From positions 1,669,583-1,733,582 of the forward strand of contig ML992501.1 of NCBI GenBank assembly GCA_010093995.1: 64,000 nucleotides of DNA, given 5' to 3'. The position numbers and the translations under genes were made by a program. Shown here piece by piece: positions 14,125 to 64,000 of the stretch (positions within the stretch are counted from its first letter, which is position 1; the number at the start of each line of letters is the position of its first letter). This DNA comes from Elsinoe ampelina. Its lineage: Eukaryota. Below the pieces are notes generated by a model that was given only the letters and a program-made list of their open reading frames with translations, was not told the DNA's origin and did no database searches.

Positions 14125-17100
14125 TATAATAGAGTATCTAGATAGAGCAGATACAATGTCTCTAAGATAGAGGAGTAATAGAGGAGAAGTATACACTATA
14201 TAAATATAATAACAAATTCCTAACCTCTCTATAGGAGGTTAGGAACTACTACTATATATACTATATAGAATTACAGCCGGAACAACGTATCTCCGACGTC
14301 TATCTACTAGCTATAAGTTTATAGTTTCTATTATAATTACCTTCTTCTCTATAGGCCTATCCTTAAGCTAGTCCCTTATTAAAACCCTCTAGTAGTAGGG
14401 AAAGAGTAAACTACCTTTAAAGCGTTATTACGCTATATATAAGAGTCTATATATAGGGTCTTAGCATTAGGTAAGAAATATAAAGTGTAGCTCTACTTAA
14501 CTTTATATATGAATTTACCTTACCTAGTATATATAACAATATTGTTCCTTCGTCTCCTAGCTACTATTATACTAGCTATAACAATAATTAGTAGGCTACC
14601 TTATTTCTTCTCGTATCTTTCTTTTCTTAATTAGTATAGGAGCCTTCTATTGTTTATAACAATAGAACAATAGGATGCTCTAATATATATACGAGGCTTC
14701 TCTCTCGTTAGAATATCTCTTCTCTTTCTTCTAAAAACCCTTTTACTAAAGTATAGCTCTCTACTCTCTACCTTATATTCTGTGCTAATATCTTCTAGTA
14801 TCTCTCTAACGTCTTATTATTCTTTCTTAGCTATTAGAAATCTTCTTTTAATATGTCTTCTCTAGTAAGTACTACCTCTAGTAGACCTAACTATAGCTAG
14901 ATCTAGCGTAAAGGTACTCCGCTATTGTCTCCTAGTTATACTAATATCGTTCTTATTATAAGGGGCCCTTATATTAACTGCCTTAAGCTCGCTACTAAAT
15001 ATATAATATTAGACAATACTAACTTTACTAACGACCTCTACTGCTATAAGGAGTAGAATAATTATGCCTCCTACTAGCTCTACTAGCTCTGCTATAATAG
15101 CTATACCTTTATAGGTTTAATATCTATTCTCTATTAGAGCAATACTAATACTCCTAGTTCCCTAAGCGCTATAGTAATAAACTTAAGGCTACTAGAGTTA
15201 CTTACGAGGCTATCTATACCTATTATTATACCGATAAGAATAAGAAGTTAGACGCTATACTAGCTAACAAGTAGCGCGTTTATAACGCCTATACTATAAT
15301 AGCGAGATATATTGCTACTCTTAAGGCTAAATATATTTCTACTAAGAAGAAGAGAAAGAGAGAAGAATTTAACTCTAATAATAATTCGCCTACGACCTAT
15401 AAGGACTTTGCTACCTTACTTACTAGTAGCTAAAAGACTAACGAGTTATTAGCAAAGATTATTAGCGCCTAGCCTACTAGGAAGGCTCCTATCTACGCTA
15501 CTATACTAGCCTCTAGTAGTACTACTAGTAGAGCTTAAGAGATTTAGAGAGTTAAGGTAGTTACTAGTATAGTATTTAGGTTTCTAGGTATAAGTATAAG
15601 TTCCTTAGTCAATATAATAGCTTAGAGCTATCGGAGATAGATTTTACCTTTTAGAGTTTATAGAGTTTTTTGCTTTCTACTTCTTCTTTTTGCCTAAGTC
15701 CTTTGTTTTATAGCCCCTAGCGGAGCTATAGCTCTTAGATCGCCCTTACTTCTTTATTAGGGCCTATTATCCCCTTAGGTATTATTGTATTATTAAGGGT
15801 CTATTATCGAGGTAGGTATTATTAAGGAGAGTATTATTGTTTAGATAATAGAGAAGTAATATATATATACTATCTCCTCTCTCTTTCTCCTTAATCTCCT
15901 TAGACTTCTTATTCTCTCTATCTACTTAACTTCTACGCTATAATATTAGAATTCTATAGTATTACGACCTACTATGTCTCTACTAATTAGATTAATAACT
16001 CTAGCTACGCTATATCCTTTAAGTCTCCGGAGATTACTAACGTTATTATAGAGGCGATATACTATCTTAGATTTAGTAGAGACTCCTCTAGTAACTATAA
16101 CTACGACTATAGTAAGAGTTCTAAGCCTAAGTTCCTACGGTTCTAAACCTCTTCTAACTATGCTATACTAGTATACTACTATTAGTATAAGCCTTGTATT
16201 TGCTACTAGACTATTATATACCTTAACTACGAGTAGGCTTAGTCCTAACGTATTTATAATAATAACGTAGGTACTTTCCTCCGCTACTGCCTCTATTAAT
16301 ATTTCTATACTAAATATGTCTTTATATATTTTTATTCTACGTCGTTACTACGATAGCTAACCTATAGTAGTATAATGTCTCTTGTACTTCGCTTATTAAG
16401 AGTCTTATTTCGACCTAGCGCGCCTTTAATACTACTATCTATGTTTAAGAGTCTAACGAAGATATAATAGAGTTCCTACGTAGTAATCTTATCCTTAAGC
16501 TAGTAGAGCTAGATAAGCCTAAAGATTTAGAGGATAGAGTTAAGATAGACCTCTTATAATCTACTAGTGTTACGTTAGAGACATATTATTAGGCTAATAT
16601 TATACTTTTTTATAATATAGACTTACTTTTTTAAATCTTAATCTCGTGCTATTCTCTTACCTTTCTCTTTCTCTATAGTGTAAGTTTAAGCTCTTTAAGC
16701 CTTATAAGCCCCTTACTTAATATAGTATTACTTCGCTATTATACTTAGAATAAGGCTCTTCTTCTTAAAGTTCTTAATTTTACTAATAGTATTCTATAGA
16801 TGCTCTATTAGCTCCTAGCTAGCTTCCTCTTTAGGATAGCCTTTCTAGAGTACCTTATAGTAAGTCTTACTCCTAATAAGGCTCTTATTAATTACCTCTG
16901 TAACTTTGTATTTTTCTTCCCCCTCGATCTCTACTAGTAGTAAAGTAACATTATTACCTCGTCGATAAGCCTTAAGAAGAGATATATAAAAGGTTAAGTA
17001 AATTAATTTTATATATACTAGAAGGTTAAGTCGGTATACTTAGTAGCCTACTATCTTAGTAACGGTAAATGGACCTATAAACTTCGCCGCTAGCTTCTTC

Positions 17101-20100
17101 TTTAGCTAGAGAGACTAGAGGTTCTTAGTACTTAGTATAACTTCTTAGCCTTTCTTAAACCTTATTAGCTAGTACTTCTTGTTATAGTATACCTTCTACT
17201 ACGTAATAGCGTTAAGCCTATACTACTTAAGTTCTTCTCTTATGTCTTATAGGGTCTTTACTCTTGCTTCTACTACTAGTACTTCTAGTAGTTATAGAGC
17301 TGCTTTCTTCTCTATAGCGTTAGCCTTAACATCGTCGGGGAGATATAGAACTATTCTATAAATGTAGTAGAGTAGGCTTACCTCTAGTAATACGCTATAG
17401 AAGCTATTATAGGCAAACTTAGCCTAATATAGCTAGTGTAGCTAGTTATCTTAGTAGAAATTAATAAACACCCTTAGGTACTATTCGATTATCTAGTTCT
17501 ACCTCTCTATAGCGCTATTAGTTTAAGGGTAGAACACTGTCGAGAGGCATCTCTAGACCTTCTATCTCTAGTAGAGAAACGTCTAAAATTTAGACTTAAA
17601 TAGAGTACCCCTATCGGTAATCTAGCTTCTTAGGAACCTATAGCGACTAAGGATCTTCCTCTCTATAATGTTAGCTAACTCTTAGGCCTCTATGTCTTTT
17701 CTTGCTAGAACGTATCTAATATATTTAGATACTCTATCTACTAGTACTAAAATTGAATCGGTAACGGAGCTCTATTAGTCCTTCGCTAGAGGTAAATTAG
17801 TAATAAAGTCTATTAACTAATACTAGAGTACTTCTCTAATAGGGGGCAATCTTAGAGCCTATATTTTACTATAGAGCTAATGTCGAGGAACCTTTATTCT
17901 TTAGTACTTGTTATAGTAATTTACATATCTAGTAACATCTATTGTTATACCCTTCTAATAGTACTTCTACTTTAGTGCGAAGAGTGTCTTTTCTATTCCG
18001 AGGTAGCCCGCTATTAGATTATTATAATTCCTATAGAGTATCTCTATAGTTAGCATTTTTATAGCTAGAATAAAGACTTTGTCTTAGAATAGTAGAACGC
18101 TATTGTCCCGCTATCTCTAGCTCTCTCTCTTAGTAGTCTTTCTTTCTTTAGGATTGCTAAGACGCTTTAGCGTTGTCTCTACTATAGCATCTCGCCGCTA
18201 TAGCCTCTTTACTAGACTAAGTAGCCTTAGTAGTGCCTCTTTATATGTATTATCTTCTTTTGTAGCTATTGTATATAGACGTCTAGGGCTAGTAAGTTCT
18301 CTATAATCTCTTTATAATCTCTCTACTATAGTTATCTATAGGGAATAGCAAAAGGAACTACTTGCCTCTAAGGGAGTAGACCTACTATCTCTACTCTTAC
18401 GGGGAGCTATCTTAGCTTCCGCGTCTATGTCTAGTATCTCGCCTTAGGCTATAATACTCTCTTAGGTATCTTTAGATTTTCTAGTATACTTTACCTTGCT
18501 ATACTATCTTAGCGAGGAGTCCTTAGTAACTACTAAGTTTATATTAAGTATCTTACCTTATACGTCTTAGGTTAACTTAACCTATTTAGCTACTATTATA
18601 ACGTTAAGGAGAAGATGTCTCTTTAGCCTCTTATATAAGTCTCTTAGGACCTGTAGGTGTAAGTCTACCTTAGCTTACTTATCTCTAGTATCTAGGTCTA
18701 GTCTTCTTAATAGTCCGTTAGTAGAATTAAGCTTCTCTAGGTTATAGGTAATCTAGATATTATATTATAATAGCTCTTCGCTAATGTAGGTCTATCGAGC
18801 TAAGAGCGTCTTAGTTATTAAGAAGTATTTTAGGTTATTATAATCTATAAATATAGTAGTAGTAGAAGAAATAGAGAGGAGATACTACTACTAGTAGCGT
18901 ACTACCTCGAGGATAGCAAGTAGCTCTTAGTTATACGTAGGCTAGTTTAACTCTACTCTCTATAGTTTCCGCGAATAGTACGTAATAGAGTACTATTAGA
19001 CTACCTTCTCTCTACTATCGCCGAATAGTTATATAGCAATCCTAGAGATAGTAAATCTAGAGGAGTTAGTATATATCCTTATATTCTTACTTTTGTTAAA
19101 AAACTATAGGAGAGAAGCAGTTATAAAGCAGTCTTTAAGATATTAGAATAATTGCCTAGCACTATTAGTAAAGTAGAAAGGACCTATCTATTTTTTATTT
19201 TTACTCTCTATAAGTAGTTATATTATAGGTCTTATTATTTCTGTATAGCTATTAATAAACTATTAGTAAAAGTTTATAAATCTAAGAAAGATCTAGAGTT
19301 CTTTTAGGGAAGTAGGTTCTAGCTAGTCTATAATAGCTTAAACTCTTTAGAGCTCTATCGAGACGCCCTTAGGGCCTAGAATATATCTTAGAAACTATAC
19401 TTCCTTAACTTTAAAGGTATACTTAGAATCCTTTATAAAAAGAAGATACTTCCTAAGTCGCGCTAGAACTTCTTTAATATACCTACGGTACTATAACGGA
19501 TCTTAGGAGTAGATAAGAATATTGTCTATATAGACGATATAGTAGTAATTAACTAAGCTATTAAGGTATTAGCTAATATATAACTAGAAGGTAGTAGGAG
19601 CATTTATAAGGCTAAAAGGTATAACTACGTATTTAAAATATCTATATCTATATTAGAACGCTATCTTTTATTCGTTGTCTCTCTTAATCTAGATATAGTA
19701 GTATACGTCCCTAAGATCTATTTTTAAGTACACCTTAGCCCTCTAGATTCTATCGAGTATCTTAGTAATAAGGGGTAAAGGGTAGTAGTTCTTTACTAAG
19801 ACGTTATTAAGACCTTAGTAGTTAACGTAGAGATATAGCAACTTATTAGCCTTAGACATAAAGAGGATAGAGGCCCCTACGGGGCTAGTAGAGTAGTAAA
19901 TACAGCCTAGCTTTAAATTCTTAACTAGGTACTCTCTAAGAGTACTTAGCTTCGTCTCTATAAGGGCGTAAATAGGTCCCTATAGGGGTTACTTCCCTTC
20001 GATAAGTTCGATTAAGTAGTTATACGGCGCTAGAGAGGGTATAGTAATAGCTTCCTTATTGTTAAATATATTTAAGAAGTTATAGAGCTAGCTTAGAAGC

Positions 20101-22038
20101 CTACTCTACGACGTTAAAGCGTTATCTTTATAAATTACATTTAAGAAAACTATATAGTACTATAGCTACTCTAACATTTCCTTAGTAAATTCTTCCGCTA
20201 TTAGGAGCGTTATATTAACGCTAGTAGAGTAATGTCTCTACCTCTAGCTTTGCTAATCGATGTCTAGGTTAATGCTAAAGAGCTACGTCTAGCCTAGTAC
20301 TAAGTTATATTCCTTTATCTCTACCGACTTAAAGTACTATCGAACCTCCTTCGTAACGCTATAGTAGTTAATAGCTTCTACTATAAGATAGTAGTATTTA
20401 CATAAGCATATCTCGTGCTAGTTAAGGGACTTTACTCTTGTTACGCCGTTAGTGCATAGGTAAACTTCTTTCTCCTTTACGTAATAGTAGTTAATAAAAC
20501 AAATGTTAGCCCCTAAATCTATAAGAGATATAGCTATATAATCGGTAGATAGAGCTCTACCTTCCTAACTAAGGTAAATGTCTATCCTTAGTCGGCTTAG
20601 TAGCGGACCTCCTTTAGATACTCCTAGCTATATAGAGGCGAGATCTATAGCTAGAGTATTTAGTTTTTTATCTTGTTATAAGGGTAGTTAGGGCAGATAT
20701 AGCTAGGTTGCCTATACCTATAGCACTTTACCTCTAAGAGGTCGAGGTAATAGAGTATTAGAGTTATATTAACCCCGGACGCGAGGTTTTTAAACTTTCT
20801 TTTTTCCTTATTTTTGTTATTCTAGAATTTTTAGTTGCCTTCCTTTAGCTTATCTATAAAGCGGCAAGAGATATACGTCGTCTCGGAGATAGCTTAGCTC
20901 CTAAACATACTCTTAATACGAGTAAAGTAGGAGATAGCCTTGTCTTTACTCCTTAGAGAGTCTTAGAGCGCTATATAGCTCTATTAATACGTAGGCTTTA
21001 TACTATTAATAAGGCAGCTTATAAACTAAGCCTTATCTATAGTAGTGTTATTAATTTCCTTAGCGCACTCTTTAAGGTATTAGGCAAACTTAGTAACTAA
21101 TTAGTTTAACCTCTAAGTACTATTATAGAATAGTTAGGTATATTTTAGGGCTCGGTTACTCTTGTCTATAATACAATCTTTAATTTATTCTTAAAAGTAG
21201 CTCTAGTTCTTAGCCTAAGGTTCTACGTTGTTAATATAGCTCTCCTATATTGTAGCGAGGGATCTATCTAGATAGCTAGCTATAAACTAGGCTCGATCTT
21301 TACTAGTAAGATAGATATACTTATAGACCCTAAAGATAGCGTAGTATAATTAAATAAATGCCTTTACGTTAGTAAGGTATATATACCTCTTTAGTTTCTC
21401 TAGTACCTCTAGCTTTTATACTTTCTTAAGGTTAATCTAAAGGGAAAGTATCTCTAGAGAAATATCTAGATTAGGAGTTCCTCGAGAGATACTATCTTAG
21501 TATAACTAATTATCGTTATTAAACTCCTCTTACTATTCCTATATATCGATATAGGTTCTCTTCCGAAGGAGTCCTTTATACTTAATTATAAAAGCTCTCT
21601 AGATCTCTACGTACTCTCTATTCTAGTAGAGTTAAGCTAGCTCTTCTTAGGCGGCACGTAGCTTCTTCTTAGATATATTAGAGAGAATAGGTTTCGATTA
21701 GGTAGCTTCTACCGAGCTAGTAGATATAGCATCTATAGTAGATAATCTGTTAGTTCTTTATTAAGCTAACTACGTTAAGACTATCGACCTAGGCTATCTT
21801 AACTATAGTTTTAGAAGAAATTTAAATTATAATAGAGTATCTAGATAGGGCAGATACAATGTCTCTAAGATAGAGAAGCAATAGAGGAGAAGTATACACT
21901 ATATAAATATAACAATAAATTCCTAACCTCTCTATAGGAGGTTAGGAACTACTACTATATATACTATATAGAATCGTAGCCGGAACAACGTATCTTCGAC
22001 GTCTATCTACTAGCCGTAAGTTTATAGTTTTCGTTATA
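14125..22038 (-). mobile_element. Ty3/Gypsy chromovirus B2, full-length and uninterrupted (7,914 bp)
   Basis: 211-bp LTRs at 14125-14335 (3') and 21828-22038 (5'). TSD GCCTA/GCTTA (one C/T change); the equivalent site in C2 has a single GCTTA. Reverse-complement match to B1. Confidence 0.92.
14853..15538 (+). pseudogene. B2 antisense accessory gene: Cys6 zinc-cluster-like protein, one intron (15111-15157)
   Basis: ATG at 14853. De-RIPed Cx2Cx20Cx9Cx2Cx6C, two Cys surviving as TGC. 47-nt phase-0 intron [G>A]TAGGT...CTAA(C)...TAG restores the frame. KKKRKR basic patch. Confidence 0.65.
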
Positions 22039-24177
22039 GCTTAGGAAGATAGTAATAAAGCTAGTATAGCTTATATACCTTAAACTACTCTCTAACGTAA
22101 CGCGCTTATATAATTCTAGTATACCTCTAGAATAGCGCCTATAAGTTCACCTATTACCTTAGGAGCGCTATAGCTATACTAAGAAGAGTTAGAGCTTCTA
22201 GAGTAAGAAGAGTAGTACCTAGAGAGCGCTTATATAAACCTTCCTCTAAGCCTAACTAGCAATATTAAATTAGAATAATATACGCCTACTTTAGCATCCT
22301 AGAACGTACTACTACTCGCCTAGGAAATAATAGAGAGCTAAGAGCATAAAGATAGTATAACACCTACGTAACTCTAGGACACTCCTAGTAGAAAGCCTAC
22401 TATAATTTTAGACTAGAGTTAGTAGATTATACGCCTCTATACTACGTAAGTACTAGTAGATAAGACTATATATATCTCTTCTACTCCTATATTGCTCTAG
22501 GACCTTATCTATATAGTATAGTAAAGAGACACCTTTACTTATAATAAGAAATAGAAACTTCTAAAAGAGAGAACCTCGACTAGTAATAGTACTACCCCTA
22601 AGTAGAGCCTATCTAGTAATAGCTTACTCCGGAACGGAGATAGAGTATATATCCTAGAAGAAACTACCTTAAGAGTAGAGCTTATATAGTATAATTATAA
22701 TAACTCCTTAGAGAGTTACTTTAGCTATATAAAGACCTACCTTAATATAAGGAGAAAGTACTAGTAGCTAGGTATATCCGTTGCTACGAAAGTGTACATC
22801 GAGCACTATAACAGCTACTAAAGGCATAAAGTAACGTAGTATAAGCCTTATAGTCTTCTATAACCCTTACTAATCTTACTTATACTCGAGGTCTTATAAT
22901 ACTAGTCGCTTGATTTTATTACTAGCTTACCTCTAGTAGAGCTCCGGCCTAGTATTATTATAGATACGATTATTGTATATATCTATCGCTTATCTAAGTT
23001 TAGTATCTATACGCCGATGTTAACTAAGCTTAACACTAGGGACTTTACTAATCTATTTAAAATAGATATTATAACGTTGTTTAGAACGCTAAAGATACTT
23101 GTCTTAGATAGAGAGTCTATCTTTATAAGCAAATTCTAGAGTATGCTATACTAGCGCTAGAAGGCGTAATATAAGCTTAGTACTAGTTTCTATCTATAGA
23201 TAGATAGCTAAACTAAAAGGCAAAACTAGACGCTAGAGTAGTACCTACGCTACTTTATTAACTATTACTAGACAGACTAGCTATACTAGGTTAAGTAGGC
23301 GCAATTCGTGTATAATAATACATATTAAGCATTACTATACGCTATACTAGTATAGTTCTTATTTATATAGGAGATGCGCCTACCTAATAATATTAAGGCG
23401 CTAGCGCTACCTAGCTATACGCTAGCGTATAACTCGTTAGTTAATAACTAAGTGTAATCTATTACTAAAACGTATATAGAGCTTGCTCGACACCTACGTA
23501 AAGTATAGAAAGACTAAGCGCTAGCCTATAATAGAGGTTAATAAGCAAAAGTCTTCTATAATAGTAACAAGGTTATACTTAGCACTAAGAACCTTCGTAG
23601 CGCTAGACCTAGCTATAAGCTATTAACTAAGTATATTAGCTCGTTTATAATTGTATAACAAATTAGTACGTAGGTATATAAGCTATACTTACTAGATAAA
23701 ATAAAGCTAATCTATAATGTCTATAACGTTGCGCTACTAGAGCTATATAGGTATAGTAAGGGCATATACCTACTACCTCTAGAGATAGAAGAGTAGGAAG
23801 AATATATTATTAAATATATCCTTAGTAAGGGCTATACTAGCACCCCGAAGGCGCTATACTACCTAGTAAAGTAGTAGAGTTACCCTATAGAAGAAAGTAT
23901 ATAGGAGCTAGTAAAAAACCTTATAAACGCTAAGGAATTACTATATAAATACGAGGTAGCTTAGTATAAGTATAGCGCTAGCTAAACACTCTAGATATAC
24001 TTAGGATTAATAAGTTAAAGGCACAAATTTTAAAGTAAAGAGTATCTAGGCGTAGTACTAGGTTAGCTTAGAGTATTATTAGCTTACGTAGGGAGAACAC
24101 TAGCGTAGTAAAAACTATAAAATTATGCCGAAGTAAAGGGAGTATAGTATAGGCGTAGCGCCCTAGCCCTCTCTACC

Positions 24178-25048
24178 TTAACTATCTACATTATCTACCT
24201 TAGTCTTATCCTTATTATTCTCCTTAATACTATTAATACGCCTAGTTAGCACTCTCGTAGCGTTATTAATTACCTATATAGTAGCGGCTTACTTATTCTT
24301 AGTAACTACCTATAAGAAAGTTAGCGTAGCTTAGGCGTTATAGAGGCGCACTTCTAGACTTATATAATTAGCTAAAGCCTTAAGCATAAAGCTAGTGTTA
24401 CTAATTATACCTAGGTATAGCGCCTTTACTAGCTACTTAGTATTAACTTTAGAGGCGAAGGGCATAGCGATAGTACTATTATAGCGTAAAGAAGTTATAC
24501 TATTACTATTACTCTTATTAACTACCTTACCCTTACCCTTAGTATTAGACTTACTCTACGTATGCTTAGTACTAGCCTTCTTACGTATATAGTTAGCATA
24601 GGTAGTAATCTAGCGCTTTAAGAGAATAATGTCCTTCTTAGGAGTAGTAGCGTTATTATAGAACAGTATATACGTAGTAAAGTATTTATTTTAGAGCTCC
24701 TTAGTAGTAACTTAATCCTTAGAGTTAAGCTTAGTAGGCTACTAAGGTTAGTATAAAGTAGGCGCGGCGTAGGTATAGAGTATACCTAGTAGTAGTGTTT
24801 ATTACTATAACTATAACAATTATAATAGGTAGTCTTAGCCGTAGTAATCTAGTAGAGGGGATTCTTAATAGAGAGTATACTATCTTCGAGCTAGAGGTGC
24901 TTATTAATAGTAATAGCGTAGTATAAGCATAGTATAGACTACTAGTCCTAGTCGGTAAAATCGCTCTTATAAGGTCTATAAAAGGTTAGTGCCGGTATAG
25001 CGTAAGTACTATATATAATACTTACTCCTTAGGAACTTTAGGGGCTAT
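24178..25048 (-). pseudogene. C1 antisense accessory gene: Cys6 zinc-cluster-like protein, two introns
   Basis: Collinear with the C2 copy (40052-40922). First Cys survives as TGC here where C2 has TAC. Confidence 0.62.
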
Positions 25049-31500: not shown

Positions 31501-31900
31501 TTAAAACGAAATAACTAAGTAAGAAACTTAACTATACTAAACTAGAATCCTTTAAGATCCTAGAAAAGAAAAATAAAAACATATATAAACTAGAACTACC
31601 TAGGTATATAAAGATCTACCTAGTCTTTTATATATTACTATTAGAGAAAGTACTATAGAATATAGTACCTAGACCTATCGAACTAGATAAAGAAATATAG
31701 AAGCTATAGTATAAGATTAAAAGGGTTTTACATTATAAATTTATAAGGGAAAAACGTTACTATCTTATCTACTAGAAAGAATATTAGTATAGTAAGGTAA
31801 TATAGGAACTAAAGGAATATTTTACATTATAAGTAATTCTAGATTACTAGACTAAAAACCTATCCTAAGTAAACTAACTAGGTAGGCCTAATACTACTAA
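28560..31900 (+). pseudogene. A2 pol (RIP-inactivated; end approximate)
   Basis: De-RIPed AMIDSGAN ~28685, YLDD ~29668, HDKELL ~30233, HD.P.AGH.G..KT ~30620, chromodomain ~31710-31860. Confidence 0.8.
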
Positions 31901-32485
31901 TACTAAACAAAAACGAGAATGCCTAAGGAAGACTACTTAGCTAAAAGAAGTACTCTAATTATTACTAAATAAGGAACTCTAATCGGAGTTAGGTATAAAT
32001 AATTACTAGTCCTATAGTAGGACGGGATTTACTAATAATAGTATTTCCTCCTACTCTAAGACTTAAATATAGGTCTTCTCTAGAGAGATTACTTTCTCTA
32101 CCTTATTCTCTAATTTCTATATCTCTTTATATAAACGAAGCTTATTACCTATAGCTCTTTAATAAGTCTCTTTTACCTTTTTATAAGCTTCTTTAGCTTC
32201 CTTTCTAGTAGCCTTAGCTATAACTAATTCCTTTTATAAACGAATATACTTAGACTATAGATACTACTATTCTAATTTTGTTACCTAAATATTATAACTT
32301 AAGTAGTTACTTACGATATACTAGCTATAGATACCTAACTAAATATAGACCTTATAGTCTAGCCTCTTTAATTTATAACGAGAATAAGCCTATAGTATAT
32401 TAGTTCTAAATAGTTTAATAAACTCTAAGAGATTCTTTCGTATAAATATGCTAGATTTACTATAGCTTTGACGACTAAGAGGCAT
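31900..32485 (-). pseudogene. A2 antisense accessory ORF: Zn(II)2Cys6-like cluster plus coiled coil (3' end approximate)
   Basis: ATG at 32485. Tyr codons spaced x2-x6-x8-x2-x7 (TGY>TAY by RIP), followed by a K/E/A-rich heptad-like stretch. Same ORF in A3. Confidence 0.6.
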
Positions 32486-35400
32486 ATTTAGTATATAGTA
32501 TATAAAGATAAGAAAGAATACTTACTTATTAGGATAACTTAATTAAAGGAGAAGAGTAATATTATAAACTAGTAGGACAGCTAGAACATAGAGACGTTAG
32601 GACTAATTAAACTACTAAGGTTATTATATAACCTAGCCCGACATTTACCTAGTTCTCTATCTTCTCCAGTAGCTCTACCTCTAAAACTATAGAGCGCGTA
32701 GGTTACTAGCGGATATATACTCTATATTGCCCCCGACTCTTACTACGGAGTATATAGAGCATATAGAGAACGTAATAGAAAATACATATATATAGGAATA
32801 GTCCTTACCTTATATAAGTACTATAGTTAACCTCGTCTAGATAGCGAACACTAGTATTACTAAGGCTAGCCTTTATAATACTATCTAATTGTACTTTATT
32901 ATCTATAAGACCTACCTTCTCTAACTCTTACTTTAGTGCTATACTACTATAGAAGTAGAACTACCTCGTTCTTAGCTTAGCTTAGACTACTCGCGTAGGC
33001 TATGTTTAGACAGTTCGTAACAGCTACTTAGCCTAGTAAAGAGGCTATAGTAGCGAGATACTATAGTAGAGACAATACTAAAGCGTCTTAGCGATCCTAA
33101 AGAAAGAGAGACTACTAAGAGAGAGAGCTAGAGACAGTAGAATAATAGCGTCCTACTATTTTAAGATAAAGTCTTTATTCTAGCTATAAAAATGCTAACT
33201 ATAGAGATACTCTATAGGAATTATAATAATCTAATAGTAGGCTACCTCGGAATAGAAAAGACACTCTTTGTACTAAAGTAGAAGTACTATTAGAAGAGTA
33301 TAACAATAGACGTTACTAGATATATAAATTACTATAATAAGTACTAAAGAATAAAGGTTCCTCGATATTAGCCCTATAGTAAAATATAGACTCTAAGATT
33401 ACTCCCTATTAGAGAAGTACTCTAGTATTAGTTAATAGACTTTATTACTAATTTACCTCTAGTAAAGGACTAATAGAGCTCTATTACTAATTTAATTTTA
33501 GTACTAGTAGATAGAGTATCTAAATACGTTAGATATATTCTAGTAAGAAAAGACATAGAGGCCCGAGAGTTAGCTAATATTATAGAGAGAAAGATCCTTA
33601 GTCGCTATAGGTTCCTAAGAAGCTAGATTACTAATAGAGGTACCCTATTTAAGTTTAAATTTTAGACGTTTCTCTACTAGAGATAGAAGGTCTAGAGACG
33701 CCTCTTAATAGCGTTCTACCCTTAAACTAATAGCGCTATAGAGAGGTAGAACTAGATAATTAAATAGTACCTAAGAGTGTTTATTAATTTCTACTAAGAT
33801 AACTAGCTATACTAGCTATATTAGGCCGAGTTTGCCTATAATAGCTCCTATAGCGCATCGCTAGAGGTAAGTCTACTCTACTATATTTATAGAATAGTCC
33901 TATATCTCCCTAACGATGTTAAGGCTAACGCTATAGAGAAGAAGGTAGCTCTATAACTACTAGAAGTACTAGTAGTAGAAGTAAGAGTAAAGGCCCTATA
34001 AGATATAAAAGAAGAACTTAAGTAGTATAGACTTAACGCTATTACGTAGTAGGAGATATACTATAATAAGAAGTACTAGCTAATAAGGTTTAAGAAAGGC
34101 TAAGAAGTTATACTAAGTACTAAGAACCTCTAGTTCTTCTAGCTAAAGAAGAAGCTAGTAGCAAAGTTTATAGGTCTATTTACTATCGCTAAGATAGTAG
34201 GCTACTAAGTATACTAACTTAACCTTCTAGTATATATAAAATTAATCTACTTAACCTTTTATATATCTCTCCTTAAGACTTATTAACGAGGTAATAACGT
34301 TACTCTACTACTAGTAGAGATTAAGAGGAAAGAAGAATATAAGGTTAAAGAGGTAGTTAATAAGAGCCTTATTAGAGATAAGACTTACTATAAGGTACTC
34401 TAGAAAGGCTATCCTAAAGAGGAAGCTAGCTAGGAGCTAATAGAGTATCTATAGAATACTATTAGCAAAATTAAGAACTTTAAGAAGAAGAGCCTTATTC
34501 TAAGTATAATAGCAAAGTAATGCTATATTAAGTAAGAGGCTTATAAGGCTTAAAGAGCTTAAACTTATACTATAGAGAAAGAGAGAGGTAAAGGAATAGT
34601 ATAAGATTAAGATTTAAAAAAGCAAGTCTATATTATAAAAAAGTATAACATTAGCTTAATAATATATCTCTAACGTAATACTAGCGGATTATAAGAGGTC
34701 TATCTTAACTTTATCCTTTAAATCTTTAGGCTTATCTAGCTCTACTAGCTTAAGGATAAAATTACTACGTAGGGACTCTATTATATCTTTATTAGACTTC
34801 TAAATATAAATAGTAGTATTAAAGGCATACTAGGTTAAAATAAGACTCTCGATAAGTAGAGTATAAGAGATATTATACTACTATAGGTTAGCTATTATAG
34901 CAATAATATAGAATAAAAACATATAAAGACATATTTAGTATAGAAGTATTAATAGAGGTAGTAGTAGAGGAAAGTACCTACGTTATTGTTATAAATATAT
35001 TAGGACTAGGCCTACTTATAGTTAAGGTATATAGTAGTCTAGTAGCAAATATAAGGCTTATACTAATAGTAGTATACTAGTATAACATAGTTAGAAGAGG
35101 TCTAGAACTATAGGAACTTAAGCTTAGAGCTCTTACTATAGTTGTAGTTATAGTTACTAGAGGAGTCTCTACCGAATCTAAGATAGTATATCGCCTCTAT
35201 AATAACGTTAGTAATCTCTAGAGACTTAAAGGACATAGTATAGCTAGAGTTATTAATCTAATTAGTAGAGATATAGTAGGTTATAATACTATAGAATTCT
35301 AATATTATAGTATAGAAGTTAAGTAGATAGAGAGAATAAAAGGTCTAAGAAGATTAAGAAGAAAGAAAGAGAAGATAGTATATATATATCACTTCTCTAT

Positions 35401-54698: not shown

Positions 54699-57600
54699 TA
54701 ACCTTACAAATTACGTAATTTACCTTCTAGCTATTCCTAATCTAGACGTGCCTCTCTAGTAGAAATATTAATAAACTTATAATTCTATTACCTTACCTAA
54801 GGAATTATTATTTACAAACCTTAGACATATAACTAGTACTATAATTAAGAAGTATATACTCTCCGAGGAACCTAAATAACTACTACTACCTATAAAGAAG
54901 GCAAAAACGAACCTTACCCTACGAATTACTAGAGCGTAGGCAAAAGCAACTAAAGACTTAAACGAATAAGACATTAAAACGGAACTAGTCGCATAGATAA
55001 GACCTTTAGCTAAGAAGTTACTAACTAAGAAAGGCTTTAAACCTATAACTAGAAGACTAGGACTCTAAAGAGCTAGAGGCTAACATTAAGTAAGGCTAAT
55101 AGTCGAGAGCGAGAGTAGAGCCGACATAGTTATAAAAGTGACAAACGAGTTAAATACTTAAATAGAAACTGCTAATACTAGTAGAGACGAGACAAAATAG
55201 CTACATAATAAAACTAGTTATAAAAAATCTCTATAGAATTTAGTTAATAATGTAACTAAGCTTAACTTAACTAATAGCAAGCTAAACGCACTATATAACT
55301 ATAGGGGATAGTAGGCCGATATACTACGCCTAATATAGAAGAAGAAGCTAGCGGAACTAAAAGTTACTCTATCTTCTACTAGTAAGGACAACTCTATAGA
55401 CCTTTTAGAGGAACTCTAGTTAGTCCTAGAAGCACTAGAAGTTAATAAAGATTTCTTTAACTATAACTACTCTCCGCTTAACTATATACTAATAATAAAA
55501 GGAGTTATAGGTAAAGCTATTACTCTACTTAAGAAGGATTCTAAACTTACTAACCTTCTAAAAGTATTCCGGGCTAGAGCGTCTACCTTGTTAATCTATA
55601 GGGATTAATATAACATCTAGAAACTACTAACCTTAAATAGAGACTTTACTACTAAAGTTCTAGGTTTCCTAACCTAAGCCGATATAAAAAAGACTAAGAG
55701 TAAGAAAGTAGAGATAGACAACTACTAGATATAGGTTAGCAACGAAACACTAGCTAAATAGAGCCTATACCTATTCTTCGTAGGATAATAACTAATAATA
55801 GGCATAACAAGAGACATAATTAGAGTAGCATTTAAGGCCTATAGTTAGGATAAGAAATAATATAAGAAGGTCCTACTTCTTCTCCTAGACGAAGTAGATA
55901 ACCTATAGAAGGCAGTTATAGCTAAGTATATTCTTTAACAACTTAATAAGTAGAATCCCTTAACTAAGGAAAAGAAGCTATATAGCATCCTAAAAATAAT
56001 AAGAGAGAAGTACACTAACCTTCGAGCATAGTAGAACTATAGGAAAGCGAAGGTAGAACTAGAAGAATAGGACTAATCTAATACGTTATAGGAAAAGCCA
56101 ATAGACAATAGAGAGAGAGAAAAGGAAGTTAACCTAAAATAAGCAACTAAAGACATTCTATTAAACTGCCTAGAAGTTAATATCGAAGTTATAGATATAT
56201 TATACTTAGACTAGACTAGCATTAAGAAGTTAAAAGCGATTAAAGAATCTTGTCTAAGTAACATTATTATAGTTAACTATCTTCTTATACTCTATAAGAG
56301 ACTAATATTTAGAAACAATAAGAAGGTATAGGCAAGGTACCTATATATTAATACTTACGCTAATCCCGGAGACCTCCCTACTAAGATATATAATCTACTA
56401 AACTACAACCTAGTAGAGAAACTAGTTAAGATTTATAAAGTTAAGAACTAGGAAAGATTAATTCTAGAGTTCGACTACGACCGAAAGGTAAACTACCTAC
56501 TATTATATCCCCTAGCCTTTGTTATTCTTAACCTCTAGATTAAAGAAATTAGCGAAGCTAGGTTATAGTATCTACTATAAGGCTATAGCGTAGTATACTC
56601 CTAAGTAACTATAAGTACGATTTTTAAATTAACTGCCTAAGAGTATAAGTTATCTAACCTAGTCTTTATCGAGATAGTATAACTTAAAGAGACACTAAAA
56701 GGGTAAAGAGGCCTTATAGATAGCCTTAAGGACCTCGCTACCCTTCTAGGATAGATTAGCCTCCTCGATATAGACGAAGTAAGAAGGTTCTATAATTACT
56801 AGACATAGAAGCTCTACGCTACCTAGAATAAGAACCTATAGTATAACAAGTTAAAACCTATAATAAAGATAATACTCCGACCTAAATTCTCTAAAGGAGA
56901 GTTAATACGTTTTTAAAAGACAGGAACTGTAATAAACTTCTTAGAACAAATCTAGATTAAAGAAGAACTAGCGCTTAATAACAATAGTAGACCCCTCCTA
57001 AAGGTTAACTATTTTAGGCTAGTTATAATTATAATAGAGAAACATATTTCACTTGCTAGCTATTACTAGAGGCTTTCGGTGTATAACAATAACAACGCTA
57101 GTTATATAAACTACTAGTTGTACGTTCTACTCTATAGTTAGGCAAGTTACGCCTACTCTACTTAATTGCTAAACTACTAGAAGGAAGTAGTTAAGGCGTA
57201 TAAAATCGAAGGCGACCTAGACCTACTATTATAAGAAATTATAGAATACTAGACTACTTTACATAAAACAGCAAAGTATTTAATATTCTAAGGATACTCT
57301 AGATACGATACTAAGGTGCCTATATAGCACACGTACGACCTAGTTATATTAATAAAGTTACTAAGAGCTCTAACAAAGAATAACTAAATTAAAAGTAAGT
57401 TTGTCGCGAGATATAACGCTACTAAAGAACAATTAGATAGAGAGCTTAAGGAATTTAAATAATAGGTTATATAACCTTAACTAAAAACCCTTACGTTAAA
57501 GAGTAGGCTAACTAAAACTAAAAGGCGTAAACCTATCGACATAGGCGCTAGCGGTACTCTAACACCCGGTAAGGAAGACAACTAGAAAACTAAATAAGGC

Positions 57601-60282
57601 TATAAGAGGAAGTTAACTAACGTAGGCTAAGGAACCGGCTAGAGCGCTATAGCCGAGGAAAAGAACCTTAAGATCTTTAACACTTTTAGCATAACTAAGA
57701 ATTTCCGAAGTATAAAGTACAATCTTAATAATATTAAGAAGAGTTCTAGTATCGAATATAAAGATTACAACGTAAAGAAATTCTTTAACGCCTTAGTCCC
57801 TAATTTCCCTTTAGCTACGATTCTACTATAGTGCTACTTTAACAGTTTTATACTTAGTTATATAATCCGCTATAAGAATACATTTATAGTTACTAAGTTA
57901 GACTACTATTTCCTTAGAATCTTCGACAAGAATTAACTCCTATGCCTAGACTACCTACTATTTAGGAATCTATACATAGTTAAGAATAAACAACGCTAAT
58001 AAGTTATAGTATTAGCCTATAGAGTTTACCTCCTAAGTAGATCGGAAGTCTAACGTTGCCTCGAGCTTAACCTAGAGAAATATAAATGCTCTAACTCTAT
58101 AGTATAGAACTAGCTACCGTAAGGAACTAACTACTACACTACTTATAAGGCTCTAGCTAGTATTAGGCTATACCCCTCGAAGTTCTAACCTGTTAAATAA
58201 AGCGTCTACGTCCTAATATAACTTTTCCTATAAACTAAGTAGAATGCCTACTACTAAGCGCTCTAAACTAACCTATATAATATTAACACTTATTATCTAA
58301 GTTTTCTAGTGTAGGTAATAAGCTTCTTTAAATAGGAAAAGGATAAATTCATTAATCTACTACTAGAAGTAGTCGAAAGGTAGAAGGGCGAGCTAAAGGC
58401 TATAGTCTAGAGTAATTATAACTCTATCGATCCGATTAACGAGGTAGTAGTATACGGAATAGGGGACTTAGTTAACCCTACACTAGCTCTATAGGATGTC
58501 TACGACGTCCCTACTAAAAGCGCTATTAACAAGATTATTAATTAGTTAGACGTAAATAGCTAAGACTATAAGCTATATAATAGAAATAATTTTAACAAAG
58601 ACAACTACCTAATTATAGATATAACCGATCTTATAAGAGGATCTAGTCTTATCGTAGTTAATAACTAGACTTCTACCGACCTTATAGTATTAAAGAACTA
58701 ACAAATAACTAAGAGCGTCGCTAGGGATACTAAAAACGCTATTATAACCCCGAAACTGAATTTAGAAGAAGAACTAGTACTACGTAAGGTATATAAGTAA
58801 CACAATAAGGAGGATAATTAAGAGGGCCTAGGGGAGATACCTCTAGAGAAACTTAACTAACCTTCGGCACTAGAGAAGCTATAACCTCTATAAAGCTAAA
58901 CTACAATTTAACCTAATAAGATCTAAGAGCTACCCGACGCCTCTATCTACTTAGTAATATAACCTAATAGCACAACTAACATTCCTATAGAGAAGTAACT
59001 AACTCTAAAGAAACTAGAGCGACAACTTAATAATATACTACTACCTAGTACTCTACTACCGTAACTAACTCCCTAGAAGTAACTATTAGCTTAAAACACA
59101 ATCGATCTTACGGGAGAAGAGAGTAATATTAGAGTAACTAAATTAGAGTAGCACGAGTTAAAGAACAATAATAATCTAGAACCTAGACTCTATAAATTTA
59201 AAGTAGCCTTTTAAGAAGCTAGGGAAATAAAACATATTCTAACTAACACCTTAAGCTCTAAACTACAAGATTTCTTCGTTTAATATAGCCTACTAAAACC
59301 TACACCTATAGATGCTACCTAACTAGTACTAGATTATACATTCCTTAATAAAAACTAGACTAGGCTAGCCTTTACTAGTTTTAATTAGCGCAACAGACTA
59401 GAACAACTTTAGAAGCTAGAATAGGAGGCACTAAAGCGACTCTACGAAGACTATAACGACGCTAATAAGTATAGGCCTTCTAAGCGGCAAGTATAAGAGA
59501 AGAACAACCTTTATAAATAGTTTAGCAAGAAAGATTAACTAGTATAAGAGACACTTATATAAAAGAAACTAAGCAAAAGACAACTATTAACGCGAAGATT
59601 ACTAAACAACTAGTATTCTTAGCTAGGCTAGGCGAAACCTCTATCCTAAGCGTAACTATATATATATAGCTATATAATTCTCCGCGAGAATTCGATTTCT
59701 AGATCTACTACGCCGCTATTAGCACTAAAGACAAATAAACTAATCTAACTACTAGCTAGAGAAGAACGTAGTAAACCGACTCCTCCTTAATATAAACACA
59801 TAGAGGAACTACTAGTTATAACACTACTAGGAGCAACTAAGTAGTAGACACGAGATAAGTAACTTAGCAAGAATAAACATTAACTAGAATAAGTTACAGT
59901 AGTTAATCCCTATAACTATAGGACTTATAGGTCGGGCCGAGAAACGAGAAAGTTTAGTGCCTATAGATCGACCTTCTATAACCTCTACTCCTAACCGGTA
60001 CTATATAACTAAATCGTATAAGCTATACTAGACAACGCTATCGAGACTATAGTAGTTGCTACTTACTAAGCCTTAGACGTAAGAGTAAGAGCTATAGGAG
60101 AATAAGTCGTATATAATACATAAGAATACGATATATAGGCACGATACATAAATAAGGTAGTAAGAGTAGTAATAGACACGATAGAGATACTACTAATCGT
60201 AAGAGAGATAATAGAGAATATAGATATAAAGAACAACTAAGAAGCGTTAGGGACGGACAACCGAGACAGTTGTTTAAAGTAG
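54691..60282 (+). pseudogene. D extra ORF (~1,850 codons, unknown function, RIP-inactivated; ends approximate)
   Basis: ATG at 54691. One frame reads as protein-like codons for ~5.6 kb with only TAA/TAG stops and no obvious frameshift. No domain recognised. Confidence 0.6.
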
Positions 60283-62822
60283 ATAGTTAGTAATAGTATT
60301 AAGATAGAGTAGTTAGTTAACAAGGTTGTTAACACTTTTCCTCTAGCTAGGGAATATATTACTATATAGTTAACCGGAGCTTACGTAGCGTAAAGCTTAG
60401 CGTATAATATATAACCTAAGATAGCTTTCTATAGCAAATATTATATAACTATGTCTTAATACACTTTTTATTACTAACTATTACAGTTTATGTAATAGCT
60501 AAGCTATTAGGGAGTTGTCTATACTAGTGCTACTCTAGTAGTAGTTAGTCGTTTCGCTAGCGCTAAGCACGGAGTGCTATCTTGTCTATATAGCTCTATC
60601 TAATAAGATATAAGAGAGATTAGAATTATAACGAAGGTAGAATATTAGAGCTAGAAAGATAAGTATATAGGAGTAGAATAGGTATTATACTAGTGTACTC
60701 TTAATTATTATAAGACTAATCTCTACTCTATCTATTCTATAGGTAAGAAGTGTTTTATTCTTCTATAGAGAATAGTATCTCCGGAGTAAGCTAGCGTAGC
60801 GTACTTACTACGTTAGTCCTTACACCTAATAAGGCAAGATAATAACACTAGCTAAAGCCTTAATATAATAAAGATCTATATATTAAATTACTTTATACTA
60901 GAAGTCTAGATATAAGAAAATAATGTAAGAGTAATAATAGACTTAGGAGCTAACTATAGCTACGTCTCTATAATAGTTACTAATTAGCTTAAACCTTATT
61001 AATATTAGAAGAAGCTACCTTACCTACTTACTATAGTAGATAGAACCCCTATAGAAAAGAATAGAAAAGTTACTTAGGAACTATAAAACGTTATAATTAA
61101 AATTAAAATATATATAGAAAAACAATTAATTAATATAGTAGATATATAGTATAATATAGTACTTAGTATAGACTAGCTTTAATAACACAATCTAGATATA
61201 GACTAAAATAAAGAAACACTTAAATTCCCTAAGTATAATTATAAAATATAGAGAGTATAATTAGCTCTATAGATACTAACTATAAGAATAGTATAGGTAC
61301 AACTAATAGTTAGAGCTATTACTAGCGTAAGTAATTAAGTACTTCTACTAGAATATAAAGACTTTAAGAACTTGTTTAAAGAAAAAGAAAGTATTATAGC
61401 CTTACTCTAATATAAACTATAGAATTACAAAATACCTTTTAAAGAGAGTAAATCTCTAATATACTATTAAGGTCTTATACTACTATTAAAATAAGAGAAG
61501 AATATTCTTAAGAACTATATTAATAAGTACTTACTTAAAGGATTTATATAACTATCTAAATTACCTATTACATATAGAGTGCTTTTTATACCTAAAAAGG
61601 ATAAAATATTATAAATATATATTAATTACTAGAAACTTAATATACTTACTAGGAAGAATTACTATCCTCTACTAAGAATTAACAAACTTTAAGACTAACT
61701 ACTTAGAGCTAAATAGTTTACTATAATTAATATTAGAGATACTTATTATTAAGTATAAATAAAGAAGAGCAAGGAGTAGAAAATAGCTTTTAGAACATAA
61801 TAGAGTTTATATAAGTACCTCGTTATACTCTTTAGGTTAACTAACGCTCCTATAACCTTCTAAGAGTTAATTAATAATACTCTATAAGAATACCTTAATA
61901 ACTTTATCTTAGTATATTTAGATAATATTATTATCTTCTTAAAGATATATAACAAATATATAAAACATATTTATAAAGTACTATAGAAACTAAAAGAGAA
62001 AGACCTACTAGTAAAACTCTCTAAGTATAAGTTCTATAAGTATAAGATATAATTTCTAGGCTATATTATATCTACTAATAGTATTAGACCTAATCTAAAG
62101 AAGATTAAGTTAGTAAATAACTAGCTAGAACCTATAATAGTTAAGGAGGTTTAAGCGCTACTAAAGTTCTTTAACTACTACTATAAGTTTATTAAAAGAT
62201 TCTCTAAGGTAGCTACGCTAATATCTAACCTTACGAAAAAGGAAACTAGCTTTATCTTTAACAAAAAATGTAGGTAGGCCTTTAAGAAGCTAAAGCTTAG
62301 ACTTATAATAGTACCTATCCTAGTACTTTTCGACCTAGATTAGTAAGTACTACTAGAAACAGATGCCTTAGACTTTATAATAGAAGTGTATCTAGCGTAG
62401 AAGGACGTAGAAGAATAACGCTACCTAATTATATACTACTTACAAAAAATAATTAGACCTAAACTTAACTATAATATATATAATAAGGAGTTACTTATAA
62501 TTATAGAAGTATTCTATAAGTAGAGAGTATACCTAGAAGAAACAACCTTACTAGTATAAGTCTATACTAATTATAAGAACCTTCTATATTACATAACAAC
62601 TAAGGTTCTTAATAGATAATAGGTTTAATAGTTAGAAATACTTACGAGCTATAACTTTTAGATCTACTATATTAAGAGATTAAAGAATAGTAGAGTAGAT
62701 GCTCTTAGCTAATAACTAGATTACTTAAAGAATATAATAATAATAGAGGCCTCTATACTAAAGTAGTAAGATAGCGCTTTAGTCTATAAGTACCTAAAGG
62801 TAGAGTAATTATATAGCCTTAC

Positions 62823-64000
62823 TATTACGAACTGTCTAAATATAGCCTACGCGAGTAGTCTAAGCTAAGCTAAGAACGAGATAGTTCTACTTCTATAGTA
62901 GTATAGCACTAAGGTAAGAGTTAGAGAAGGTAGGTCTTATAGATAATAAAGTATAATTAGATAGTATTATAAAGGCTAGCCTTAGTAATACTAGTGTTTA
63001 CTATCTAGACAAGGTTAACTATAGTACTTATATAAGGTAAGGACTATTCCTATATACATGTGTTCTCTATTATATTCTCTATGTGCTCTATATACTCTAT
63101 AGCGAGAGTTAGGAGTAACATAGAGTATATGTCCGCTAGTAACCTATGCACTTTATAGTTTTAGAGGTAGAGCTACTAGAGAAGATAGAGAACTAGGTAA
63201 ATGTCGAGCTAGGTTACATAATAATTTTAGTAGTTTAATTAGTCCTAACGTCTCTATATTCTAGCTATCCTACTAGTTTATAACATTACTCTCCTCCTTT
63301 AATTAAGTTATTCTAACGAGTAAGTATTCTTTCTTATCTTTACGTACTATATACTAAATATGCCTTTTAGTTGTTAAAGGCATAGTAAATCTAGTATATC
63401 TATACGAAAGAATCTCTTAGAGTTTATTAAACTATTTAGAACTAATATACTATAGGCTTATTCTTGTTATAAATTAAAGAGGCTAGACTATAAGGTCTAT
63501 ATTCGGTCGGGTATCTATAGCTAGTATATTATAAGTAACTACTTAAGTTATAATATTTAAGTAATAAAATTAGAATAGTAGTATCTCTAGTCTAAGTATA
63601 TTTATTTACAAAAGGAATTAGTTATAGCTAAGGCTACTAGAAAGAAAGCTAAAGAAGCTTATAAAAAGGCAAAAGAGACTTATTAAAGAGCTATAGGTAA
63701 TAAGCTTTATCTATATAAAGAGATATAGAAATTAAAGAATAAGGCAGAGAAAGTAATCTTTCTAGAGAAGATCTATATTTAAGTCTTAGAGTAGGAGGAA
63801 ATACTATTATTAGTAGATCCCGTCCTACTATAGAACTAGTAATTATTTATACTTAACTCTAATTAGAGTTCCTTATTTAGTAATAATTAAGGTACTTCTT
63901 TTAGCTAAGTAGTCTTCCTTAGATATTCTTGTTTTTGTTTAGTATTAGTAGTATTAGGCCTACCTAGTTAGTTTACTTAGGATAGGTTTTTAGTCTAGTA
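62823..64000 (-). mobile_element. Ty3/Gypsy A3, 3' end, inverted inside A1, truncated by the window edge
   Basis: 463-bp LTR at 62823-63285 is the reverse complement of the A2 LTR, followed by the PPT complement and the A2-like 3' region. Confidence 0.9.
63360..63940 (+). pseudogene. A3 antisense accessory ORF (Zn2Cys6-like plus coiled coil; end approximate)
   Basis: ATG at 63360. De-RIPed ACSRCKSKGLDCKVHVRSGICGQCIVSNCSSCD followed by a coiled-coil-like stretch. Confidence 0.6.

Follow-up and report, generated by a model that had tools for sequence, protein, structure and literature searches.

In fungi, the Boty-like (BcGypsy1) retrotransposons of Botrytis cinerea have been described as possessing an additional antisense gene, brtn (PMC8365987, PMC4227169), which, according to PMC8365987, is missing from the current B05.10 annotation. 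In plants, the additional open reading frames (ORFs) of the aORF-3R type, carried by maize Grande, rice RIRE2 and Silene Retand, run antisense between pol and the 3' long terminal repeat (LTR); some of the plant aORF proteins are nuclear and suspected of a regulatory role, and a review credits them with no clear similarity to other proteins, no recognisable domain and no known function (PMC7264820). In the present study, we analysed 64,000 nucleotides of Elsinoe ampelina (GenBank assembly GCA_010093995.1, contig ML992501.1, positions 1,669,583 to 1,733,582 of the forward strand; hereafter the window), for which an earlier note had claimed that three Ty3/Gypsy families with unrelated LTRs, named A, B and C, each carry an antisense gene for a six-cysteine, zinc-cluster-like protein between pol and the 3' LTR. 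As regards identity, place and conservation, we are highly confident that family A is a member, killed by repeat-induced point mutation (RIP), of an ascomycete Ty3/Gypsy clade equipped with such an antisense gene.

The state of the DNA determines how any gene in it can be read. Bases 1-5000 are ordinary DNA of about 50% G+C; the remainder has about 32% G+C and is almost devoid of ORFs longer than 80 codons, and from about 5 kb onward it is a nested, RIP-saturated mosaic of Ty3/Gypsy elements. The TpA/ApT ratio is 1.9-2.2 in the elements versus 0.88 in the flank, and (CpA+TpG)/(ApC+GpT) is 0.13-0.20 versus 1.10. Differences between sister copies consist of transitions and transversions in the proportions 736:23 (family B), 629:20 (C) and 78:2 (A), that is, 97% transitions. 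RIP in the element block is saturating. In the verified pol frames (5720 codons), TGA and TGG do not occur at all, Cys and His have fallen to 0.38% and 0.47%, Tyr stands at 9.7% and stops run at 7.7 per 100 codons; therefore, a Tyr codon here may represent an original Tyr, His or Cys. Stops in the RIPed DNA represent mostly Gln or Trp, and the Tyr share is 7.7-8.9% in every frame. The gag gene of the family A copy A2 (~26850-27400, + strand) illustrates the consequence: Pfam detected Retrotrans_gag (E 8.3e-6) and missed the CCHC knuckle, whose site at 27340-27390 (+) reads LYFKYKRPRYXARDY, with all four ligands now Tyr. Because so obvious a knuckle was missed, Pfam blanks on RIPed frames are uninformative, and the suggestion that RIP conceals such a gene from ORF finders is correct: none of the RIPed copies gave any Pfam match.

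Family A is represented by A2 (25999-33023, +), full length and RIP-dead, and by A3 (62822 to the window end, -), which has an adjacent LTR at 62830-63283. On the element map, built from self-blastn and tblastn with intact pol proteins, the LTRs of A2 lie at 25999-26515 (5') and 32557-33023 (3'), both from self-blastn, and its pol, found by tblastn, at ~29106-31784 (+). The antisense accessory ORF (aORF) of A2 occupies 31877..32485 (-), starting from an ATG at 32485-32483 and interrupted by 18 RIP-made stops in 195 codons; that of A3 occupies 63360..63968 (+), with 17 stops in 195 codons and its motif at 63459-63551. The six-Cys cluster of A2 (32294..32386, -) reads YSRYKLKRLDYKVYI*LGIYS*YIVSNYLSY. 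All six motif positions are TAT in both copies, and one or two in-frame stops fall inside the motif. With Tyr read as Cys, the strict Zn2Cys6 signature (PROSITE PS00463) has two matches in the window, both of them the A copies, versus a mean of 0.03 in 60 Markov simulations. The gene lies on the purine-rich strand. The same map bears out the placement claimed for the antisense ORFs in general, since each of the six intervals proposed in families A, B and C falls after pol and before the 3' LTR and is antisense to pol.

Family A is supported by intact proteins. A HMMER profile of the two dead copies, with stops as X, was run against 1.84 billion representative proteins and gave exactly three matches, of 199, 208 and 211 residues (E 3.6e-9, 2.2e-6 and 7.9e-5), the same length as the window ORFs. 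The alignment is colinear over about 200 residues from a shared Met-Pro start; the six motif Tyr fall on six Cys, the Tyr of KVY falls on an invariant His, and the window stops fall on Arg, Trp or Gln of the relatives. With these three as queries, a family of 48 proteins (P0044-P0091) was collected at E<=1e-3. No Pfam domain is recorded for any of the 48; the members with JGI names are called "hypothetical protein", save one labelled as an efflux-pump subunit, which is a mislabel, and one NCBI member, from Lithohypha guttulata, is entered in UniRef as "Zn(2)-C6 fungal-type domain-containing". In the ESM Atlas, three clusters of the family (140, 122 and 62 members) are likewise all "hypothetical" and, where the phylum is known, mostly from Ascomycota.

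Across a 31-member alignment, C39, C42, C49 and H52 are invariant and C58, C61 and C69 are at least 90% conserved, and 29 of the 31 members show the spacing 2-6-8-2-6/7/8 (16 with -6, 8 with -8 and 5 with -7). The family proteins measure about 190-215 residues and open with a basic N-terminus (SST-RRK), followed by the cluster MPRACSxCRRx4CKVHVRSGxCGxCx6-8C with its invariant His, a helix some 85 residues long, the acidic stretch AEEAIAVEEA and an aromatic and acidic tail (LALSPxTWSA..PDxFW..PWV). For family A, the six Cys and their spacing had been deduced from Tyr codons alone, and this deduction proved right: intact relatives have Cys at all six places, with Cx2Cx6Cx8Cx2Cx7 in P0044. The charged helical tail predicted for all three families is present in A, where a long helix follows the cluster; in B there is just one short RRREREK run.

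When the family hidden Markov model (HMM) was run against the six frames of the window, it matched the A copies alone (i-E 3.6e-16 for A2 and 2.1e-15 for A3). We then subjected 20 natural genes to saturating RIP in silico and rebuilt the HMM from them; this RIP-aware HMM lifted A2 from 38.9 to 88.4 bits (i-E 1.5e-28) and A3 from 37.4 to 85.5 bits. Such a rise is the behaviour that a RIP-killed member should show. RIP has converted each Cys and His codon of the A cluster in the window into Tyr and introduced the 17-18 stops. In this sense, RIP-saturated DNA is still readable, with Tyr standing for Cys, His or Tyr and a profile RIPed in silico more than doubling the score.

The genomic setting of the gene was established by scanning metagenome contigs with the family alignment, which yielded 29 loci. 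At 24 of them the aORF is antisense to a Gypsy pol whose C-terminus faces the 3' end of the aORF (tail-to-tail), and in 10 of these 24 the aORF end overlaps the last pol match; of the five loci lacking an opposite pol, three are contigs of 1197 bp or less. The ATG lies 72 bp from the LTR edge in the window copy A2, 85 bp in L004 and 133 bp in L027. Un-RIPed relatives had been named as a check, and those of family A do keep the antisense frame open: the aORF is intact in 23 of the 29 loci, at 152-213 codons. Four AT-richer loci from other samples (L026-L029, G+C 0.35-0.46) carry an aORF with RIP-like decay; at the Cys and His positions of intact copies, L029 reads RVYKVYVRSGKYSEY, so that the same Cys-to-Tyr decay is found outside the window.

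In the integrase tree, family A falls inside the gene-carrying clade as sister to L003 (support 88/99), and despite RIP the A2 integrase is 44% identical to that of L003. As a control, 21 Gypsy loci chosen by pol alone from another collection were searched for the gene, which was found in none of them (best E 0.011); the aORF is therefore a trait of one lineage and not general to Gypsy elements. The ratio of nonsynonymous to synonymous substitution (dN/dS, Nei-Gojobori), also named as a check, came to 0.10, 0.14, 0.14 and 0.54 in the 4 of 190 pairs that are unsaturated at synonymous sites; 185 of the 190 pairs are synonymously saturated, with a median dN of 0.59. These values indicate that the gene is under purifying selection in the intact relatives.

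The same data bear on the thought that the family A ORF might be a captured piece of a host Zn2Cys6 gene, useless to the element. Fungal genomes contain many Zn2Cys6 genes to supply such a piece, and LTR elements are known to capture genes (PMC7264820). Nevertheless, a full protein of 200 residues, and not the cluster alone, has been kept across a synonymously saturated clade, with low dN/dS and mostly intact ORFs; place, orientation and LTR distance are fixed; and the Fungal_trans domain of host factors occurs in none of the 48 members. We regard such a capture as extremely unlikely.

Every locus has, ahead of the ATG, the end of the LTR with the complement of the polypurine tract (PPT; GTAACAC|TATCCCC...), followed by a small hairpin of 6-8 bp, which in L001-L025 lies about 40-110 nt upstream of the aORF ATG. 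Its stems vary between loci in a co-varying manner while the loop TCC(T)C is kept, and 19 of 19 loci fold a hairpin with at least 5 pairs (median z -3.4, from single folds). RNAalifold on a MAFFT alignment of the region returned 0 pairs because unequal loop lengths shift the hairpin arms. The equivalent in A2 is the spacer between the 3' LTR edge and the aORF ATG (32486..32556, -; 72 nt). The hairpin could act in the genomic RNA beside the PPT, in the 5' untranslated region of the antisense mRNA, or as a DNA site.

At two places, L004:4673-7086 and L005:9551-11964, two 330-bp direct repeats that are 95% alike stand 2.08 kb apart and enclose an intact aORF of 175 codons and no gag-pol, nor does any pol occur in the flanking 5-10 kb. 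The arrangement resembles a non-autonomous LTR element pared down to the accessory gene.

What the protein may do was approached through its predicted structure. AlphaFold2, given the 31-sequence alignment, returned a model with a mean predicted local distance difference test (pLDDT) value of 81.7 (averages of 84-94 in the ten-residue blocks of positions 31-70, where the cluster lies) and one long helix at 75-159. Foldseek against the PDB placed Zn2Cys6 DNA-binding domains at all of ranks 1-14, among them Hap1, Pho7, Put3, Cep3, Gal4, Ppr1 and Lac9, with E 0.37-3.2 and none significant; the best small-domain fit was 1cld, with a root-mean-square deviation of 2.8 over 37 columns. Structure neighbours in the ESM Atlas have low TM values (0.23-0.32) and are mostly Zn(2)-C6 clusters, and the sequence profile against the PDB recovered Leu3 at E 0.68, amid coiled-coil noise. 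In a member-by-member Pfam search, Zn_clus was the commonest family, with 15 of 31 members at E<=1 and a best E of 0.0071. The homodimer prediction scored 0.51, versus 0.00 for the best control; of the proteins with solved structures, 21 of 30 known as pairs attain this mark, as against 0 of 23 known as single chains. The result was the same in three runs, with a pLDDT of 71 for the partner. From the weak but uniform Zn2Cys6 matches in fold and Pfam searches together with the predicted dimer we therefore draw a likeness to Zn2Cys6 domains; going by these models, the family is probably a distant relative of them and works alike, at sub-threshold Zn_clus scores.

Several observations weigh against seeing in the family a Gal4-like DNA-binding regulator. 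Both copies of the gene in the window are dead. P0046 (12.1 bits) and P0045 (9.7 bits) miss the Zn_clus gathering cut-off of 21 bits, and the three members with listed scores are all below Pfam cut-offs. The PS00463 pattern fits just 5 of 31 natural members. DUF3716 (PF12511), a family of uncharacterised function, was matched by 9 of 31 members at E<=1 (best 8.4e-5), and P0045 reaches 17.2 bits against it, the cut-off being 22, over profile positions 3-59 of 59, which cover the Cys cluster. Moreover, the predicted dimer is antiparallel along the helix (contacts at i+j ~211-218); the dimers of Gal4 and Put3 are parallel.

The main rival of the regulator model is a different nucleic-acid-binding role in the element's cycle. 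The protein would then be real and selected yet no DNA-binding transcription factor, serving instead in binding of genomic RNA or of the PPT-side hairpin, in particle assembly, in the steering of integration or in countering host silencing. Besides the sub-threshold Zn_clus membership and a dimer unlike the Gal4 type, such a role would suit the hairpin with co-varying stems that all 19 folded loci keep between LTR and ATG, the LTR pairs that enclose the aORF alone, and the weak link to DUF3716, a domain reported in two genes of a class II transposon (PMC8232023). On the other hand, Zn2Cys6 DNA-binding domains typically have this spacing, basic residues around Cys 2-3 and a post-cluster helix; all 14 of the best fold matches belong to them; and the acidic and aromatic tail, as far as the alignment suggests, resembles an activation region. 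On balance, we hold another step of the life cycle to be an unlikely explanation of the family A protein.

Our preferred explanation joins the identity of family A to an element-encoded regulator, and as a whole we consider it probable with moderate confidence. A role of the protein as a DNA-binding regulator, taken by itself, is plausible, though we stop a little short of favouring it, and activation of the element's own LTR by it seems rather unlikely. In the model, an antisense promoter in or beside the 3' LTR would drive the gene, a promoter inferred because just 72-133 bp separate the ATG from the LTR edge and because the gene, at its 3' end, meets or overlaps the 3' end of pol. The six Cys would hold zinc in the manner of a Gal4-type Zn2Cys6 cluster, the long helix would pair two chains, and the protein may move into the nucleus, contact DNA and regulate transcription of its own element via the acidic and aromatic tail. 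If it acted in trans, LTR pairs that keep just the gene, as in L004 and L005, could survive or be taken over by the host for its own use. All these ideas taken together, namely that the Gypsy clade has its own mini Gal4-like factor, antisense, started at the 3' LTR, dimeric and LTR-binding, that it sets transcription or shields the element from silencing, that gene-only LTR pairs persist or are domesticated, and that B and C may hold a second accessory gene, amount to a tentative and, as a conjunction, doubtful proposal.

Families B and C gave no comparable picture. B1 (14125-22038, -) is full length and RIP-dead, with 211-bp LTRs at 14125-14335 and 21828-22038 and a pol ending at 16764, which leaves a post-pol stretch of 2.4 kb (14336-16763, -). 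B2 (+) lies in pieces at 6963-10692, 25910-25998 and 33023-37124, the last being its tail, and has its post-pol region at 34524-36908 (+). C1 (10679-14124 plus 22039-25909, +) has its pol end at 23961 and its 3' LTR from 25689, with the post-pol region between them (23962-25688, +), and C2 runs from 39197 (-), with the post-pol region 39409-41117 (-). The post-pol regions thus measure 2.4 kb in B and 1.7 kb in C, against about 0.77 kb in A. The candidate antisense ORF of B1 spans 14853..15538 (+), with the motif at 14970-15104 and 12 stops in 228 codons, and its sister in B2 spans 35711-36396 (-). The candidate region of C1 is 24178..25048 (-), with the motif at 24789-24929, and that of C2 is 40052-40922 (+). 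In C1 the frame from the proposed start has 50 stops in 290 codons, and the motif belongs to a different one, which has 24 stops in 289 codons; the longest real ORF of the region (24731-24985, -; 84 aa) lies in the third.

The six-position motif is present at the named places in all three families, solely when Tyr is read as Cys. Real Cys codons are limited to B1 (TGC at 2 of 6 positions, 4 and 25) and C1 (TGC at 1 of 6, position 1), with none in B2, C2, A2 or A3. The remark that TGC in one copy versus TAC in its sister displays the decay directly in B and C is therefore true for 3 of 12 positions and fails for the other nine. Two or three in-frame stops fall inside the motif of B and two inside that of C. 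The spacings in B and C are non-canonical (x20-21 after the second Cys). In the six frames of the window, 14 matches were obtained with a generic six-[C/Y] Zn2Cys6 spacing and 44 with the union of the three proposed spacings. Taken alone, then, such patterns say little, since chance often produces spacings like those of B and C in this DNA.

Nor did the searches that were made find a relative. The natural and the RIP-aware family HMM, at E up to 1000, had no match in the B or C post-pol regions. Pfam returned 0 families for all six frames of the B tail at E<=1 and for the named B and C frames, a word-based protein search with the B frame returned 0 relatives, and an ESM Atlas search with the stop-free 84-aa C ORF returned no usable match. 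The 21 Gypsy loci of the viral collection include no close relative of B or C (integrase identity <=29%), and in the integrase tree B and C form a separate clade outside the one that carries the aORF. Among the three post-pol regions, tblastx and blastn gave nothing significant or colinear, and 6x6-frame Smith-Waterman comparison gave inconsistent alignments. A two-copy deRIP leaves every frame full of stops; per-frame stop density and a codon model from RIPed pol are too noisy, often fail within pol itself and do not single out the true A gene.

It might still be argued that B and C also bear antisense six-Cys genes, either too far diverged to be recognised or having Cys 2 and Cys 3 separated by a long insert, so that the regulator arose or was kept in three families. 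The same kind of inference was, after all, correct for A. The B and C motifs start C-x2-C-x6-[C/H], as in family A, and the TGC codons of B1, opposite TAC in B2, and of C1 would fit. Stops are few in the B frame (12 over 228 codons, versus 22-34 in the other two frames of the same strand), true pol frames having about 7.7 per 100; the AT skew reverses across part of both post-pol regions; and the B and C segments align colinearly in the named frames (scores 72-94, z 1.8-4.8). However, the B-C likeness is equally strong in other same-phase frames on both strands (z 3.5-5.7), and the transversions are flat over codon positions (78/71/74) with no third-position excess, so that the likeness reflects DNA-level kinship of sister families and not protein conservation. 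The RIP-aware HMM, at 88 bits on A, finds nothing in B or C, and the union pattern is frequent in the window. The B motif lies on the pyrimidine-rich strand, unlike the A gene, and the distance from the LTR to the candidate start is 518 bp in B and 640 bp in C, versus 72 bp in A. With the blank Pfam and B searches and the separate integrase clade added, we judge a three-family regulator very unlikely. Thus, of the antisense six-Cys gene announced for three families, the part on A stands by homology, place and selection, and the part on B and C drew no HMM or Pfam match; to judge from these comparisons, B and C are a different Gypsy lineage in which an antisense zinc-cluster gene is not supported.

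In B and C, the region from the end of the pol chromodomain to the 3' LTR greatly exceeds the length that a Gypsy element requires. Low-stop stretches occur there on both strands, and close to the LTR the sense strand is strongly skewed towards purines. In the last 600 bp of B the sense reading, which is that of the purine-rich strand, looks no less like a protein than the antisense one. Accessory ORFs, sense or antisense, are possible in these regions.

As for the nesting, B1 lies inside C1, both C1 and A2 lie inside B2, an outer copy of A encloses B2 and C2, and A3 is a further insert. Contigs at least 80% alike to the segment 14336-25998 numbered 5348 in run X1 and 3993 in run X2, with differences, at 1662 variant places in all, that are nearly all transitions. 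Run X4, presumed to be RNA, gave 0 such contigs, a result that carries no information on expression. In run X3 (label organism B), the contigs found with 22100-26000 are 80-99% like family C and none is like family B; therefore, family C or a close relative exists under more than one organism label. Inserted in C2 is a fourth Gypsy-like element, D (46370-60491, +). It is bounded by 136-bp direct repeats (46370-46505 and 60356-60491, 97% alike) and contains reverse transcriptase at ~51726-52970 and integrase at ~53388-54590, followed by about 5.8 kb; no gene of the family A type was found in it. In the non-RIPed flank of about 50% G+C, an alpha/beta-hydrolase gene is intact at 974-1999 (+; Abhydrolase_1, E 5.4e-26) and sits at most 5 kb from the RIPed block.

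Returning to the described systems, brtn and the family A gene are both one extra antisense gene in a fungal Ty3/Gypsy element, compared here by description only, and no member of the 48 carries a Botrytis name; among published systems, brtn is the nearest precedent. A paper by Zhao et al. of 2011 (Virology 417:248) reportedly names the brtn-type antisense gene of Boty-like elements in its title. In the literature that we covered, which did not extend to brtn's own publication, we found no paper tying a Zn2Cys6-like protein to a Gypsy antisense ORF. The plant aORF-3R genes resemble the family A gene, again by description only, in place and orientation. Being antisense and post-pol at 24 of 29 related loci and intact in 23 of 29, the family A gene is an additional ORF in the same sense; it differs in that the plant genes belong to plant hosts and non-chromovirus lineages, whereas the family A protein has a six-Cys cluster and a defined family. 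Retrotransposon antisense extra genes are so far known mainly from plants.

With the Zn(II)2Cys6 domains (Gal4, Hap1, Put3, Ppr1, Pho7, Leu3; PF00172), the family shares the spacing 2-6-8-2-6/7/8, basic residues near Cys 2-3 and a post-cluster helix, which in the family is predicted to pair. It is unlike them in scoring below the Pfam cut-off, in the invariant His two residues past Cys 3 and in the RSG motif, and unlike the corresponding factors in its total of about 200 residues, the lack of Fungal_trans, the antiparallel predicted dimer and its residence on a retrotransposon. In Zymoseptoria tritici, the class II transposon REP9 carries the DUF3716 proteins REP9-1 and REP9-2, the former described as having 193 aa and six cysteines (PMC8232023). 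They are similarly small, fungal and transposon-borne, REP9-1 being compared by description only; REP9 differs in being a DNA transposon with terminal inverted repeats. An antisense promoter has been described in the 3' LTR of the human T-cell leukaemia virus (HTLV) (PMC7264820).

The family A gene combines a 48-member family, a zinc-cluster-like DNA-binding signature with a pairing helix, purifying selection and a fixed place beside the LTR; since intact, clonable natural copies exist as well, the role of retrotransposon antisense genes becomes directly testable in a fungus or in yeast. The nearest functional parallel may be HBZ of HTLV-1, a minus-strand, 3' LTR-started, dimerising nuclear regulator, which is a bZIP protein of an animal retrovirus and is likened to the family A product by analogy alone, with no homology. 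If the regulator model is true, fungi would have in this gene an equivalent of the antisense regulators of retroviruses, of which HBZ is one.

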